Source of the DNA: Bacteroidales bacterium
Lineage (GTDB): Bacteria > Bacteroidota > Bacteroidia > Bacteroidales > UBA3824
Reading direction: 5' to 3'
Assembly: GCA_017417315.1 (NCBI GenBank)
Contig: JAFPZK010000045.1
Location: 20,757 to 84,756, forward strand
Length of the DNA stretch: 64,000 nucleotides
The notes beneath the pieces are model-generated. The model saw only the letters and a program-made list of their open reading frames with translations, had not been told where the DNA came from and searched no databases. Shown here in pieces: positions 55,297-64,000 of this stretch; the stretch's first letter is position 1, and each line of letters opens with the position of its first letter. Made by a program: the position numbers and the translations under genes.

Positions 55297-55515
55297 TTAA
55301 TGCCCCAAAGGTAATGATTTTTTGTCAAAGGGCAAATTTTTTTTCATTTCCTCTCTGTAAAAATCTTTGACGGCGGCAGGACCGTCCCACCAAAAACGCG
55401 ATTTGGCATTTAATAAAAGGGCTGCAGTTCCGGATTGAAGAAATTCCGGCAAAACGTCCGAGGCTCGTCTGCCGTCTTCCTCTGCTATATCGCTGACAAC
55501 CATTGAAATAAGCAA
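55297..55515 (-). CDS. small conserved protein (DUF3791-like); 5' end uncertain
   Basis: About 70 aa helical protein paired with a similar gene. The upstream frame stays open across an A8 run, so the true start is unclear. Confidence 0.4.
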   Translation of the reverse strand: MLISMVVSDIAEEDGRRASDVLPEFLQSGTAALLLNAKSRFWWDGPAAVKDFYREEMKKNLPFDKKSLPLGH

Positions 55516-55602
55516 ATCAATAGCGGTCTGATTTTTTTTCTGCTTACATACATATCACTTTCCTCGACCATAAAAATGTTAAACCTGAACTTAAATTTTT
55601 AA

Positions 55603-55821
55603 TCATCTTTTTACCCCCTTGTTTTTAAGATATTGTTTTATATCGTCAAAAATCGCCGCATCGCCTTCAACGTGAAACAATCCGAAAAAGTCTTCAATAT
55701 AGCGGAATACACCGTGTAAGGCGAAAAAATTTGCAGCCTCAGGGATAGACATTTTCCACTTTTTGGCAGCCATTCTCACCAAACGCATTTGCATATAAAG
55801 TATTTGAAGTTTTTCCTCCAT
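55603..55821 (-). CDS. small conserved protein (DUF3791-like)
   Basis: 72 aa; ...FGLFHVEGDAAIFDDIKQYL fits the family pattern. Confidence 0.5.
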   Translation of the reverse strand: MEEKLQILYMQMRLVRMAAKKWKMSIPEAANFFALHGVFRYIEDFFGLFHVEGDAAIFDDIKQYLKNKGVKR

Positions 55822-58968: not shown

Positions 58969-59928
58969 TTATCCTATCTTTTTATCTTTGACATGTTTTT
59001 CAAAATCCTCATCGGAAAGTACTCTGTCGTACTCATTTTGTTTTACCTTTTGAATCGTGATGGTATCGTTAACGTTAGTTATAAAAGTCTTAAAATCAGG
59101 CGAATCTTCTACCAAACGGTTTAAAGTGTCCCAATCAATGATTTCGTGATAACGGGCGGGACAAATTATTTCGGAATCCTCAATATTTTCAGCGTCAAGT
59201 TTGATAATGCCTATGCCAAATGAGTTTGAAAGCCTTTGAAGTTCCGTTTGAAATTCAGCGTCTTCGTCGATTTTCAACGCCACAAGATAGCCTTCGTTTG
59301 CCCACGATGAATTTGATACAGCCTGAAAGAAATATTCTCGAAGATGAGCAAAGTTTAACTCTTTTTTCATCTCAAACGAAAACATCTTGATCGAATTGAC
59401 ATATAATGATTTCTGCAAGTTGGTTGTTGATGTTTCATAATCGTTAAAAGGATAGTAAACACCTACTAAATCGGGGTGCAACCACTTGTTGAAACCTTGA
59501 ATCTTTTTTGCCGAGTTTTCGTGAAAGATGGTTTTTGTATAGCACTTAAAATGCTGATTTGTATTTACATATTTCACTAATAGCGGATGAAGGTCGCGCT
59601 CGTTGTATGTGCTTGTGATTTTTTCAGCGGCAATTTCCTGTTTTTCAACGGCTTTTTCTATGTCGGCTTTTTTCAAGTCGTTGCCACGCAGCATAAACAG
59701 TGCGGGACGTTTGGAAACCTGAACAAATTTAGATTCTTCACCATTGTCGCGGATGTCGACATAGAGACGTGCGCCGATAGATGCCGACGGTGTTTTGCCC
59801 GTAGTGCCAAGTTGCTTGTCCAAGCCAATCTCAACGGCTTTTTTCCAAATAGCGTCAGGTGTTAGAGGCGCGTTTTCCTTTGCCAAAACATCATAGCAAA
59901 GGTCACTGAATGTGTATTTGTTTTTCAT
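58969..59928 (-). CDS. HARE-HTH domain protein with a C-terminal PD-ExK nuclease-like domain
   Basis: N-terminus is FSDLCYDVLAKENAPLTPDAIWKKAVE...TPSASIGARLYVDIRDNGEESKFVQV (HARE-HTH pattern). C-terminus is WLHPDLVGV...MFSFEMK...FQAV...GIGIIKL (PD...ExK). Confidence 0.6.
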   Translation of the reverse strand: MKNKYTFSDLCYDVLAKENAPLTPDAIWKKAVEIGLDKQLGTTGKTPSASIGARLYVDIRDNGEESKFVQVSKRPALFMLRGNDLKKADIEKAVEKQEIAAEKITSTYNERDLHPLLVKYVNTNQHFKCYTKTIFHENSAKKIQGFNKWLHPDLVGVYYPFNDYETSTTNLQKSLYVNSIKMFSFEMKKELNFAHLREYFFQAVSNSSWANEGYLVALKIDEDAEFQTELQRLSNSFGIGIIKLDAENIEDSEIICPARYHEIIDWDTLNRLVEDSPDFKTFITNVNDTITIQKVKQNEYDRVLSDEDFEKHVKDKKIG

Positions 59929-59987
59929 AATTTCATTTTTTTAAAGAGCAAGGATAAAAATCCTCGCCCTGAATGTTAATCAATTAG

Positions 59988-60548
59988 TTAGCGTTTAATA
60001 ACTTTGTCGAACTTAGCCCGCATTGTCAGACCTTTGAAATTAAGGGCAACAATCTGACCTTGTGAGGCGGTATCAACAGATTTGCCGTCGGTTTCGATAG
60101 CGTCAACGGAGGCAGTTTGAAAAATTCCATCGCTTGGTTCGGCATAAATTATTGGGTCGCCAACGTTAATGCTGCCCGAAAGAATTTTACCTTTTACGAT
60201 GATGCCTTTGCCTTTGAGCGGCGATTGCTCGGTAACGGAAATTTCGCAATGATTTCGTTCTGTGTCAATGCTTTCAATAACGAGATTATCAAAATCTGTA
60301 AGTGATTTTGGCGCAATACTACCAAGAAGAAGTCCTACTATTTCTCCTTCTGTTGTAATATTGAAAAATTTTTCAATAACTTTTTTGTCTGTTTCAATAC
60401 CATTTACAAACGATTTCAAACCGTTATTCAAAACTACTTCGTCGCCCAAATCAACTGTACCCGATTCTATGCAACCCAAAAACATGTAGCCACGACCTGA
60501 AATATGAAACACTTCATTGACTGGCATTTTAAAATGTTGATTTTCCAT
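59988..60548 (-). CDS. stand-alone protein made of two EF-Tu domain-II-like beta-barrels (no GTPase domain)
   Basis: FKMPVNEVFHISGRGYMFLGCIESGTVDLGDEVVL... and ...LKGKGIIVKGKILSGSINVGDPIIY...QGQIVALNFKG each follow the pattern PF.m.i..vf.i.GrG.v..G.v.sG.i..GD.v......G..vG.ll.G. Confidence 0.5.
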   Translation of the reverse strand: MENQHFKMPVNEVFHISGRGYMFLGCIESGTVDLGDEVVLNNGLKSFVNGIETDKKVIEKFFNITTEGEIVGLLLGSIAPKSLTDFDNLVIESIDTERNHCEISVTEQSPLKGKGIIVKGKILSGSINVGDPIIYAEPSDGIFQTASVDAIETDGKSVDTASQGQIVALNFKGLTMRAKFDKVIKR

Positions 60549-60578
60549 ATATGATTAAGTTTTAAAATTTTGACTAAA

Positions 60579-63500
60579 TTATTGTACTATCAAATTTTCT
60601 ACGCCGTCCAATTCTCCTTTTTTGATACCTGATACAAGTATTCCGACTTTGTCGCCCGGAGTGGCAATAGCAGCGTCATTGTCGAACTCATCAACAACGC
60701 CATACAAACCGTTGCTGAGGTAGATTGTGTCGCCGAGTTCAATTTGTCCAGACTCTACCGTACCGCTTAAAAGATAACCTTTGCGACCTTCAATCCAATA
60801 TATACCGTCCACAACCATTTTGAACGGTTCGTCAAATACTTCATTTGTGGATGGAATGTCAATTGGTTGAACTTTGCTGTTATGTTCTCTTATTTTCGCC
60901 TCATCTGCCTTTACAGGACATTGCGACTTAGCAAACAGTTCTTGTTTTGTAGGTTGTGTGTCGGGTTTTACTACCCTTTTTTTGTCGATTGTAATGACAT
61001 CTTCTTTGTTAATCTGTTGCTCTGAAAGTTCTTGCGCTTTCATTTCTTCATACCGTTTTGTGTCAGCCTTGTTGAGTTTGAAGCCAACCACGCTTTCTAT
61101 TTCATAGCATAAGCCCCAACTGCAAAGTGTTTTTTCTGCATAAAATGTCCTATTGTTGTCCATATCAGCAAGACTATCGATGTCGGATTCGGGAGAACTT
61201 TCTACGATGGAATCGTCTGTGTATGGTTTCAGTTTCACGAGCAAAAGACTGCCTGAACTATCGTGCGAATTACGGAACAAAATGTAGTCGTATTTTCGTA
61301 AAACAAATGGGAATACTCCATCGTTGTACGATTCAATTCCTATAATTTTACTCATATCAATAGGAATGTCGGTGCGTATTTTGTATTTGACAGGAGAATC
61401 CGGCGATTGTTCTATGTATCTTGATGCTGTATTTTGGTTTATGTTCCTATGTTCTGTTGTTTGATAACCGAAAATCATCGCAAATAAAAATTCACTTGCA
61501 AGTGTTAGCCTCAACACATTGTCGCCGTCGGGGTCAACACCGAGTCCATCGGGTGTAATTACTTCTTTATCTGTTAATACTGCGCCGTTAAGTGCATACA
61601 TTACTTTTTTAATGTGTGTTGGAACAATCAAAACAGGCCAATAGAACGGTGTATCGCGCCATCCGTCTTCTTTTTTGCCGTTTTGCCTCAGCAACATCAA
61701 CACAGGGTAATCGACAGCCGCCGCCCGAGAAGGTGCTGTGTCACTATTTCCGTCGTCAGGAGCGTCAATATATTTTCCATTTTCACGGAGACGGCTCATA
61801 TTACGGTTGTCTGCATAGTGAATTAGCACTTTGGGTGATTCCTTGTCTTGAAGTGAATATTCTATGGCTGCAAGCATTTCATTTGCATCCCATTCAAGCC
61901 CAACATTAAATGTACAGATAGTATTATCTTCGTAAATAAATGTACTGCGTATCTTCTTAATGATGTCTTGCGCAACGGCAGAATCCATCTCGAAGAAACC
62001 GTTTTTCTCAAACCCTGCCGTAGATTTTACAATCGAATCAATCTCAGCGATTGTATTTGAAATAGCAGTCTTAGTTCCGGTTTGGAATCCAGACGGCACA
62101 ATACGTTGCGACGGCGTTATCATCGTAACGTTGGTTAGTTTTATTTTTGAGTTGGCGCAGGGTTTAATGTGCTTATCGTAACCGATAAATTCAGTGGCAA
62201 AATTGCTGTCAATATCTTCGTCACCAACCATTTTGCTAAGTCGGTCTCGCAAATCCTCGTCTATTTGGTGTATGCGTTTCAAGAACGTATAAATGCCGAT
62301 TGTGGTGAAGAAGCGTGTTACCGACATATCCTCTTTGCTGCGGTTGCCATACATTCGGGCGTGCTGCAAAACTGTATCCATTTGAAAGTTTTGAGGGTCG
62401 CGACCGTAGAAAAAGCACAACATATTGTCGATGGTAATGCCTCGATCAAGGATACTGCCACCTATAAAAATATTGGCAGTGTTGTCAAGTCGAAGTTGTC
62501 CGCTGTCATTCAAGTTTTCGGAAACTTCATTGTCAGAATTGATGATTTTGACAGAATAATCATTTTCGTTGAAAATCCGAATGATACGGTCGCGAATTTC
62601 TTGTTTAGATGGGAAATCAATGTTTTTGACACCGGCTTTTTGCGCCTTCGTGTTAGATTCCTTGAAATCGTCAAAAGCAATGTCATACATTGATTCCAAT
62701 CGCAAGTCTGCCTTGTCATTTTTGTCATATAAGAAACCATCGCGAATGTCATCTATAAGTCTCATACTGAGTTTCTTTTGCCATTCGTGTGCATCTTTGT
62801 CGGTATCAACGTGAATGAGACAACTTGTAAAACATTCCAAATTTTGTTTCTCCCTTTGAATGGAACGTATGGCAGCGGCAGTGAAATAAAATACAAGTGT
62901 TTTTGTAATATTTTTGATATTGTCAGATGCTATGCCGTTGTTGATGTAACGTGCGTTGCGTTTGCCCAAAATCGAAATGCACTTTTCGTCTACCGGCACA
63001 AACAGATTTGAATACATTGAATTATCATCTTCTGATTCCTCAAAGTATTGCTTTCCACCCACATATTTGTCGTGAACAGGCACAAGTTCTGTATGGCGCG
63101 GCTTGAAATGTGGCACTAATCCGTTAGAATCGAGGTTGAGATACCCGTCCGGCTGCAAATAGAGTGCATAAGGCGTGGCTGTTACCTGCAAGTAGCGGCA
63201 ATATTCAGGAATAGAAAGAAACTCCATTATTTGACTACTGATTTTTGCCATAGTGCTTACATTGTTTGACCTTCTAAAATTGCAACTTGCAAAATCAGCC
63301 TCATCATCAACTACAAGTACTTTTTTCTTTTTGAGGTATGGCGACTTCACGTTGAACAGATTGATTAAGTGCTTGATGTTGGTAGTCTCTTTTTTGCAGA
63401 CTATTATGATTTTTGAACGTTTTGCAACACTCTCTTGAAGACCATTTTTCTTAAATTTTTCGAGAATATCGTAGATTTCTACTCTTCCCTTTTGGTTGAG

Positions 63501-63830
63501 TGTACCATCGGACTTAAACCATTGAAAATCTCGTAGTAAACGATTGAGAGTTTGTGATGCAAGTGTTTTTGTTCCCTTTGTCATCACAATGCATACATCA
63601 ATTCCATGGTCAAAACACAAACCGATTATGTTTTCAAAAGTGTTGGTTTTTCCACACTGTATTTTACCAAGCAAAAGAACGGGTTCTATTGCGTTTGGCT
63701 TGTTGCTGAGTAGCGATTTTACTGTGTTTTCAATACAATCACAAAGTTCTTTGGAGTATGGAAATACTGATTTCTCTCGCAATGTGTTGTAGAAGTATTC
63801 CTCTACTTGATTGTTGTTACTTTGTATCAT
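60579..63830 (-). CDS. Z1-domain SF2-like ATPase fused to a C-terminal EF-Tu domain-II-like beta-barrel
   Basis: LLLGKIQCGKT (Walker A), VLVVDDEADFAS (DEAD-like), VTATPYAL, IFIGGSILDRGITIDNMLCFFYGRDPQNFQMDTVLQHARMYGNR (Z1 core). The last 82 aa are PFKMVVDGIYWIEGRKGYLLSGTVESGQIELGDTIYL...GDKVGILVSGIKK. Start moved to ATG 63830; the track start at 63872 is TTG. Confidence 0.65.
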   Translation of the reverse strand: MIQSNNNQVEEYFYNTLREKSVFPYSKELCDCIENTVKSLLSNKPNAIEPVLLLGKIQCGKTNTFENIIGLCFDHGIDVCIVMTKGTKTLASQTLNRLLRDFQWFKSDGTLNQKGRVEIYDILEKFKKNGLQESVAKRSKIIIVCKKETTNIKHLINLFNVKSPYLKKKKVLVVDDEADFASCNFRRSNNVSTMAKISSQIMEFLSIPEYCRYLQVTATPYALYLQPDGYLNLDSNGLVPHFKPRHTELVPVHDKYVGGKQYFEESEDDNSMYSNLFVPVDEKCISILGKRNARYINNGIASDNIKNITKTLVFYFTAAAIRSIQREKQNLECFTSCLIHVDTDKDAHEWQKKLSMRLIDDIRDGFLYDKNDKADLRLESMYDIAFDDFKESNTKAQKAGVKNIDFPSKQEIRDRIIRIFNENDYSVKIINSDNEVSENLNDSGQLRLDNTANIFIGGSILDRGITIDNMLCFFYGRDPQNFQMDTVLQHARMYGNRSKEDMSVTRFFTTIGIYTFLKRIHQIDEDLRDRLSKMVGDEDIDSNFATEFIGYDKHIKPCANSKIKLTNVTMITPSQRIVPSGFQTGTKTAISNTIAEIDSIVKSTAGFEKNGFFEMDSAVAQDIIKKIRSTFIYEDNTICTFNVGLEWDANEMLAAIEYSLQDKESPKVLIHYADNRNMSRLRENGKYIDAPDDGNSDTAPSRAAAVDYPVLMLLRQNGKKEDGWRDTPFYWPVLIVPTHIKKVMYALNGAVLTDKEVITPDGLGVDPDGDNVLRLTLASEFLFAMIFGYQTTEHRNINQNTASRYIEQSPDSPVKYKIRTDIPIDMSKIIGIESYNDGVFPFVLRKYDYILFRNSHDSSGSLLLVKLKPYTDDSIVESSPESDIDSLADMDNNRTFYAEKTLCSWGLCYEIESVVGFKLNKADTKRYEEMKAQELSEQQINKEDVITIDKKRVVKPDTQPTKQELFAKSQCPVKADEAKIREHNSKVQPIDIPSTNEVFDEPFKMVVDGIYWIEGRKGYLLSGTVESGQIELGDTIYLSNGLYGVVDEFDNDAAIATPGDKVGILVSGIKKGELDGVENLIVQ

Positions 63831-64000
63831 TGTCTTTTCTTTTAAGTTTATATTTTCTCCATTCTTCTGCAAAACCCCGAATCAGACTTTATTATAAAAA
63901 AACAAAAATGCGCAGGTTTTTGGCTTAATGCCCGTCCCGAACATTGAGGCTTTGGCCTTGCCCGATAGATAGGAACGAGCAACGCCTCTGCCTACGCAAT

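Follow-up and report, generated by a model that had tools for sequence, protein, structure and literature searches.

CglI acts as an obligate R2H2 complex, and the REBASE class 'Type II helicase domain protein' includes its motor, H.CglI. Besides, elongation factor Tu (EF-Tu) has emerged as a point of contact in phage defence: Avs7 incorporates host EF-Tu via domains II/III, enhancing capsid-protein sensing (bioRxiv 10.64898/2026.01.04.697583), and the same source cites both the binding of the T4 capsid protein to EF-Tu in the Lit system and the cleavage of EF-Tu by type IV Thoeris. EF-Tu domains were also listed among the variable modules of the two-gene conflict system EACC1 (Kaur et al., 2020), while HrgA proteins (formerly DUF511) were predicted in 2010 to consist of a winged helix and a PD-(D/E)XK nuclease, without a conserved methylase neighbour (PMC3045609). 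Here we describe a locus in which elements of these three kinds are found together, at the end of a 64,000-nucleotide stretch of a Bacteroidales genome (contig JAFPZK010000045.1), hereafter the window. Three genes encode a restriction-type motor with an EF-Tu domain-II barrel at its C-terminus (gene 1), a protein made of two further barrels (gene 2), and an HrgA-family protein (gene 3). No single described system in PADLOC v2 has models matching all components, and the combination of a motor, a predicted nuclease and three EF-Tu barrels is without earlier description in PADLOC models or the literature.

Gene 1 matches the PADLOC profile 'Type II helicase domain protein' (Helicase_II) at 2.6e-44 over about 600 profile positions, reaching position 613 of 621, and every diagnostic motor motif of H.CglI, as defined in the H.CglI paper, is found in it. 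In an alignment of 47 homologues, G55, Q58, G60, K61 and T62 of the Q-variant Walker A motif GKIQCGKT (aa 55-62) are invariant, as is the Walker B motif DDEAD (aa 175-179); the same holds for H340 in the H/H motif HVDTDKDAH (aa 340-348) and for Q489, H490 and R492 in the short motif VI, QHAR (QxxR; aa 489-492). The AlphaFold2 model of gene 1 (mean predicted local distance difference test score, pLDDT, 77.7) has the HsdR motor of the Type I enzyme EcoR124I as its top fold match (1.3e-8), followed by other superfamily 2 (SF2) translocases including LlaBIII (Type ISP) and HamB, the Hachiman helicase. The crystallised C-domain of H.CglI in the PDB was matched neither by the gene 1 sequence nor by the family profile. 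All residue numbers refer to the 1083-aa product starting at ATG 63830, which was adopted as the probable real start because an identical product is called on 9 public contigs and the 1097-aa form starting at TTG 63872 is absent from public assemblies.

The last residues of this motor protein match NCBIfam EF-Tu models at 5.5e-6 and EF-Tu chains in the PDB at 2.9e-4 (EF-Tu residues 209-297), the latter alignment opening already between domains I and II, in their linker (window protein, IPSTNEVFDEPFKMVVDGIYW; EF-Tu, IPTPEREVDRPFLMAVEDVF), and a custom barrel hidden Markov model finds residues 1002-1082 at 1.8e-16. In the AlphaFold2 model a beta-barrel is formed by aa 1018-1075, and since the 60-residue segment before it has a pLDDT below 50, the tail barrel hangs flexibly tethered from the motor. 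Gene 2 contains two EF-Tu/SelB domain-2 stretches (NCBIfam, 1e-13 to 4e-15); barrel 1 aligns with EF-Tu 200-275 at 2.9e-7 and keeps the core 'MPVxxVFxIxGRG...G.VExG.VxxGDEV', and barrel 2 aligns with SelB domain 2. Judged by these alignments, all three barrels are true homologues of EF-Tu domain II (EF-Tu residues about 200-300). Because the tuf genes closest to the barrels in tblastn searches are those of Bacteroidales (39-42%, versus 34-38% for other phyla), their origin fits a putative capture from the host lineage's own tuf. The 21 close homologues of the double-barrel protein are all two-barrelled and all come from gut or rumen Bacteroidales metagenomes. Their most conserved feature lies between the barrels, where the linker IDTERNHCEISV (aa 92-103; window 60240-60275) is near-invariant and far more conserved than the barrels that flank it, with I94, D95, E97, N99 and E102 invariant and H100 and C101 conserved in at least 90% of sequences.

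A sequence-only reading of the same DNA had described three co-oriented, tightly spaced minus-strand genes, a Z1-family ATPase with an EF-Tu domain-II-like tail, a protein consisting of two such barrels only, and a HARE-HTH protein with a PD...ExK signature. Each of these descriptions is borne out by the open reading frames (ORFs), with gaps of 30 nt between genes 1 and 2 and 59 nt between genes 2 and 3, and by the profile matches and conserved motifs given here. It had likewise known of no system pairing such a motor with translation-factor barrels, in agreement with our failure to find a PADLOC model or a paper describing one. The features of the cassette are collected in Table 1 together with two variant loci.

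Table 1. Coordinates of the cassette genes and their parts in the window, and gene order in two variant loci.
Feature	Location	Strand	Basis
Gene 1, longest ORF (TTG start, 1097 aa)	60579..63872	-	ORF list
Gene 1, preferred ATG start, 1083 aa	60579..63830	-	product called on public contigs
Gene 1, DEAD N-core RecA domain, aa ~45-250	63081..63698	-	Walker A and Walker B motifs
Gene 1, Z1-type segment (PF10593) with H/H and motif VI	62220..62906	-	Pfam
Gene 1, segment directly preceding the tether	60966..62129	-	
Gene 1, disordered tether between motor core and barrel, aa 956-1001 (low confidence to aa 1017)	60828..60965	-	
Gene 1, tail barrel, EF-Tu domain-II homologue, aa 1002-1083	60582..60827	-	
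Gene 2, 186 aa, two EF-Tu domain-II barrels	59988..60548	-	Pfam, NCBIfam, PDB alignment
Gene 2, barrel 1	60273-60548	-	
Gene 2, barrel 2	59991-60272	-	
Gene 3, 319-aa HrgA-family protein	58969..59928	-	Pfam HARE-HTH, conserved motifs
Gene 3, HARE-HTH, aa 6-78	59695-59913	-	Pfam 6.4e-13
Gene 3, predicted PD-(D/E)xK core, aa ~105-260 (E110, D153, E186-x-K188)	59149-59616	-	motifs
Variant B: WYL, Big_2 - SF2 helicase-HNH (768 aa) - double barrel - 121-aa protein	L011		
Variant B': WYL, 187-aa protein - SF2 helicase-HNH (890 aa) - barrel1-like unit joined to tail-like barrel	L113		

Comparison with related loci showed that the recurring unit consists of a WYL regulator, a large SF2 restriction-type motor and one or more EF-Tu barrels. 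Thus, of the three-gene module proposed from the sequence, the defence-like character and the EF-Tu barrels stand, but the conserved unit is not the three genes themselves. Across the relatives the barrels always accompany an SF2 motor, whether fused to it, split from it, duplicated, or moved to a different motor. In variant A' (L021) the tail barrel is a separate 121-aa ORF with its own ATG, lying after two stop codons behind a poly-A tract, and in variants B and B' the motors are helicase-HNH proteins resembling the helicase cores of PbeA and of Type IV methyl-directed enzymes. Occurrence in fused, split and duplicated form is classic gene-fusion evidence that barrels and motor are linked physically or functionally. 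Tail-less relatives without a barrel gene occur in other contexts, one of them (L023) behind a ResIII and N6_N4 methyltransferase pair. The motors form a clade alpha (window, L021, L019) and a clade beta (L009, L111 and L015, with L030 more distant). Between these clades the tail barrel is 75-78% identical and the motors only 41%; the barrel holds the best-conserved 60-residue segment of the gene 1 protein. HrgA is 90-99% identical among L001, L009, L111 and L030 in spite of the 41% identity of their motors, L021 combines a window-like motor with an HrgA of only 65% identity, and P0270, the partner of an SF2-HNH motor, has a C-terminal barrel that shares 80% identity with the L021 split tail. 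The WYL regulators, L019 excepted, are 73-98% identical. From these sequence comparisons, the parts of the cassette have been reshuffled by recombination, apparently with breakpoints in the disordered tether, and yet keep re-associating. A 121-126-aa protein beginning 'MGYxSYEEWKDET...' recurs in the variants, 88% identical between loci, after HrgA in L009 (11628-12008) and L028 (11020-11382) and after the double barrel in L011 (10749-11114); it has no Pfam or PADLOC match and is missing from the window.

Upstream of gene 1 the window extends for 128 nt beyond the TTG codon, or 170 nt beyond the ATG codon, and the flank was read from a 98-kb contig with identical genes (locus L001). There a gene about 395 nt off and in the orientation of gene 1 encodes a Big_2 lipoprotein of 227 aa; it is followed by a WYL regulator of 301 aa in divergent orientation, by an AbiEii toxin together with a DUF6922 protein of 122 aa, probably the antitoxin, by a Macro-domain protein and by thiamine biosynthesis genes. 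The AbiEii pair and the Macro gene (L001:6319-8799, 0.3-2.5 kb past the window end) form a small defence island beside the thiamine genes. The earlier suggestion of a defence-island setting is consequently strengthened by genes just beyond the window, and its statement that no methyltransferase is visible also holds past the edge: none was found among the called genes in 10 kb upstream or, on the downstream side, among the window's ORFs. The possibility of a methylase just past the edge was rejected, as the 10 kb upstream are accounted for by the Big_2, WYL, AbiE, Macro and thiamine genes. Among the variant loci with an available upstream flank, a WYL + WCX regulator (about 300 aa; Pfam; 2.6e-20 to the PADLOC WYL profile) is divergent from the motor in L001, L009, L011, L015, L021, L111 and L113, and co-oriented in L019; AbiEii, Macro, GmrSD and AAA_14/DUF4143 genes are further neighbours across the variants. 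Between WYL and motor, the 227-aa Big_2 lipoprotein (lipobox '...TSC') is encoded in L001 (8922-9605), L011 (6576-7259) and L021 (4720-5403), and a 187-aa signal-peptide protein fills this slot in L009 and L113.

We propose, with a probability of about one half, that the locus is a defence cassette of rumen Bacteroidales, under WYL control and without a methyltransferase, that targets DNA in an ATP-dependent manner and uses its barrels as a portable licensing module; whatever goes beyond domain identity and gene linkage in this proposal is what we infer. The motor would translocate on double-stranded DNA, and the HrgA-type HARE-HTH/PD-(D/E)xK protein would fill the role of the CglI R-subunit in DNA binding and cleavage. 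With no methylase to mark self DNA, cleavage would have to be licensed in another way, and because the cassette lacks a methylase we assign the self/non-self logic to the barrels, which, as protein-binding domains, would recognise either a protein of phage origin or a host state altered by the phage, and would thereby activate the motor-nuclease or bring it in. By analogy with Lit/Gol and Avs7, candidate ligands would be a major capsid protein or an EF-Tu-targeting factor. The WYL protein would repress the cassette until stress. Several points weigh against this proposal. The family is narrow, and the comparative statistics rest on about eight distinct architectures; the WYL and small surface-protein genes could just mark a recombination hotspot; and the barrels could be passive assembly adaptors and not sensors. 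Moreover, HrgA could be merely an adjacent independent nuclease, because it stands alone in 78 of 80 reference-genome loci and its phylogeny is discordant with that of the motor; several motor-plus-barrel cassettes (L015, L019, L011, L113) have no HrgA. Support for the nuclease fold of gene 3 is also weak in Foldseek searches of the PDB, where the best match of its model reached E = 0.03 and the weak, non-significant matches included Ecl18kI, FokI, EndoMS, HamA and AspBHI.

Domain II of EF-Tu holds the aminoacyl end of tRNA, in a 3'-end pocket that we take to comprise E215, D216, F218, T228, E259, F261, R262 and N273 (E. coli numbering). At positions 215/216/218, 228, 259/261/262 and 273, the tail has D/G/Y, S, D/F/D and K, barrel 1 has N/E/F, L, E/D/K and I, and barrel 2 has T/E/S, K, E/D/G and I. 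Most pocket residues are thus replaced in the three window barrels, whereas small stand-alone barrels keep the EF-Tu residues. The barrels are acidic (isoelectric point, pI, 4.15 for the tail and 5.0 for the gene 2 product), which argues against an OB-like binding of nucleic acids. The most variable stretch of the double-barrel family, aa 49-65 of barrel 1, corresponds to EF-Tu 256-272, where the ligand loop used to be, and this variability would fit a diversifying recognition surface. Acidity, the lost pocket and the variable segment at the former ligand loop together suggest a protein-binding sensor, and the barrels may be the phage-sensing part of the system. The sequence-only reading had offered a sensor or decoy for a phage factor as a working hypothesis; the idea gains precedents in Avs7-EF-Tu and Lit/Gol, and is plausible by analogy with them.

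Part of the same evidence could be read in terms of assembly. The tail and the double barrel might be structural adaptors that bind each other or the nuclease and thereby assemble or dimerise the complex, as CglI does in its obligate R2H2 form; self/non-self discrimination would then come from elsewhere, for instance from modification-dependent DNA recognition by HARE-HTH or from WYL-controlled expression. Such a role would explain why no segment is better conserved across divergent motors than the tail barrel, as expected of a docking interface, and it is in line with the joint presence of the fused tail and the separate double-barrel gene in every tail-bearing architecture (L001, L009, L015, L111) and with the single chains P0265 and P0270, which unite a barrel1-like unit with a tail-like barrel. 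Nevertheless, pairing of barrels is not obligatory, as L021 has the split tail only, without a double-barrel gene, and L019 only one 84-aa barrel; a hypervariable loop at the ancestral ligand site would be unexpected for a pure adaptor. We regard the adaptor role as possible but rather doubtful.

Over its full length, gene 3 shares 50-96% identity with upwards of 7,800 proteins of many phyla, and several of these are named 'HrgA protein'. E110, H151-P152, E186-x-K188 and Q202 are invariant in 43 homologues, and D153 is conserved in at least 90%. In its AlphaFold2 model (pLDDT 85.9) the conserved residues lie on the expected alpha-beta-beta-beta-alpha-beta core. PDB sequence searches with gene 3 gave no match, so that its predicted nuclease assignment rests on motifs and literature, without a structural match. 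Whether HrgA belongs to the system is a separate matter: the system might comprise the motor and barrels, with WYL, only, and HrgA be a single-gene nuclease or restriction-like neighbour in a defence island, as the HrgA-less cassettes and the absence of a conserved partner for the family in earlier work (PMC3045609) would have it. What speaks for membership is the arrangement of the genes. HrgA follows motor and barrels in L001, L009, L021, L030 and L111; in the window it lies on the same strand, directly after them at a gap of about 60 nt, with no terminator-like hairpin between the three genes. The only such hairpin on the minus strand (58212-58174) lies past the next gene, which encodes a 165-aa signal-peptide protein. 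Two HrgA alleles, 65% identical, occupy that same slot, and HrgA-less variants have another nuclease-type domain there, namely, in L011 and L113, an HNH domain within the helicase protein itself and, in L019, a 706-aa protein with a weak HSDR_N_2 match. We consider HrgA a facultative nuclease component of the cassette, with the independent neighbour, tentative as that reading is, remaining a serious rival.

A retained translation ligand, that is, the aminoacyl-tRNA 3' end, tRNA or the ribosome, would make DNA cleavage depend on the state of translation, and a charged-tRNA sensor had indeed been suggested from the sequence. The homology to a tRNA-holding domain is real, an archaeal stand-alone relative (a weak match here) is annotated as the tRNA-binding protein Pbp11, and tRNA is often contested in phage defence. 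However, since most pocket residues are replaced and domains I and III, which complete the EF-Tu tRNA site, are absent, charged-tRNA sensing is unlikely; the acidity of the barrels (pI about 4.2-5.0) also disfavours it, the small stand-alone barrels with the intact pocket offer a contrast, and the effector side consists of a double-stranded DNA translocase and a DNA nuclease. We accordingly disfavour the charged-tRNA sensor, and translation ligands in general appear very improbable. Hardly credible, finally, is a role outside defence, as a repair or housekeeping helicase-nuclease set or as mobile-element cargo, given the patchy, mosaic distribution, the WYL regulator and the AbiE, GmrSD and Macro neighbours, the homology entirely to restriction-type motors, the close relative within the ResIII-methyltransferase restriction locus L023, and a G+C content that in the final 6 kb of the window (0.37-0.40) is slightly below that of the adjacent housekeeping block at 50-56 kb (0.42-0.43). 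Further into the window, two adjacent 72-aa minus-strand ORFs (55297-55821) lie between the cassette neighbourhood and indolepyruvate:ferredoxin oxidoreductase genes, and one of them is annotated as DUF3791 on a related contig.

A profile search with the double-barrel alignment returned 2,815 representatives at E <= 1e-3 and 205 at E <= 1e-10, and thus exposed a widespread and, apparently, largely unstudied population of stand-alone and fused EF-Tu domain-II barrels (profile matches P0262-P0410). Among the matches are many 'MGLF...' single-barrel proteins of 100-150 aa, hundreds of them about 110-130 aa long, in which the aminoacyl-tRNA pocket residues are retained; the contigs on which such proteins were located were shorter than 1 kb. 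Barrels also occur in tandem, as doubles and triples, and in fusion with a Ser/Thr kinase (P0276), a zinc ribbon (P0267), an Hsp70-like ATPase (P0349) and a caspase-like domain (P0266; 'YSGHG...DACR' motifs judged by eye), and in some EF-Tu proteins one more barrel is present at the C-terminus (P0268, P0271, P0274). In P0011, P0012, P0019, P0263 and P0265, read from putative start codons, the barrel is preceded by an N-terminal helical extension of about 45-55 aa (MIDKLLQKFRRQL), which might serve as a docking element in place of a covalent tether; P0012 adjoins an SF2-HNH motor. Phage-encoded barrels were found to be unsupported. The double-barrel profile found nothing in a scan of viral contigs, nearly all matches of the small-barrel profile were full-length tuf genes at the ends of contigs, and tblastn against annotated phages and plasmids returned tuf only. 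Among the IMG/VR contigs matching the small-barrel profile (L116-L152), the full-length tuf at a contig end is probably host flank at a prophage border in most cases; a stand-alone barrel of 106 aa (L149:5947-6267) and the non-GTPase fusions in L146, L147 and L151 depart from this pattern.

The cassette is a candidate new defence system in gut and rumen Bacteroidales, with relevance for phage ecology and phage-based interventions there, and it would provide a tractable small (about 85 aa) candidate sensor domain. Set against known systems, the kinase, caspase-like and zinc-ribbon fusions of the barrel agree with the modules of EACC1 (Kaur et al., 2020). Membership in MZA was rejected, since NCBIfam MzaC scored 42.9 bits against a cut-off of 1500; other Mza components are absent, and the neighbours here are Big_2, WYL, barrels and HrgA. 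As with WYL-family (BrxR/CapW-like) defence regulators, the cassette is headed by a WYL + WCX gene of about 300 aa that is usually divergent, although here it sits outside the window. Gene 3 is a full-length member of the family of Helicobacter pylori HrgA (DUF511), the 'restriction endonuclease-replacing gene', being of equal length and sharing its HARE/winged-helix N-terminus and the three PD-(D/E)xK motifs.

Compared with EF-Tu and other translational GTPases, the barrels are devoid of the GTPase domain I and of domain III. The finding ties in with the EF-Tu domains II/III of Avs7 capsid sensing and with the classic Lit/Gol case: capsid sensing and Gol binding use EF-Tu domain II (with III), and the cassette encodes homologues of domain II. 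It differs in that Avs7, Lit/Gol and type IV Thoeris use the complete EF-Tu of the host, whereas here a diverged domain II alone is encoded by the cassette and fused to an effector. Scans with Pfam, NCBIfam and PADLOC found no match to the Lit protease or to a STAND NTPase in the three proteins, and the cassette has no caspase either. The closest likeness is to CglI/NgoAVII, with which gene 1 shares the 'Type II helicase domain protein' profile and the motor motifs, and which likewise encodes a separate small protein with DNA-binding and nuclease domains alongside the motor. The CglI/NgoAVII R-subunit, however, combines a PLD nuclease with a B3-like domain, neither of which was matched in the three proteins in Pfam, PADLOC and NCBIfam scans, and its place would here be taken by the HARE-HTH and PD-(D/E)xK domains of HrgA; CglI/NgoAVII has a cognate methyltransferase in the operon, and the cassette has none. 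The gene 1 motor is about 450 aa longer than that of CglI, with an extra conserved C-terminal region, and the cassette adds a WYL regulator and the EF-Tu barrels, one tethered to the motor and two on a separate protein. By analogy, we infer that the cassette would work like a CglI-type motor-plus-nuclease restriction enzyme to which a new accessory module has been added.

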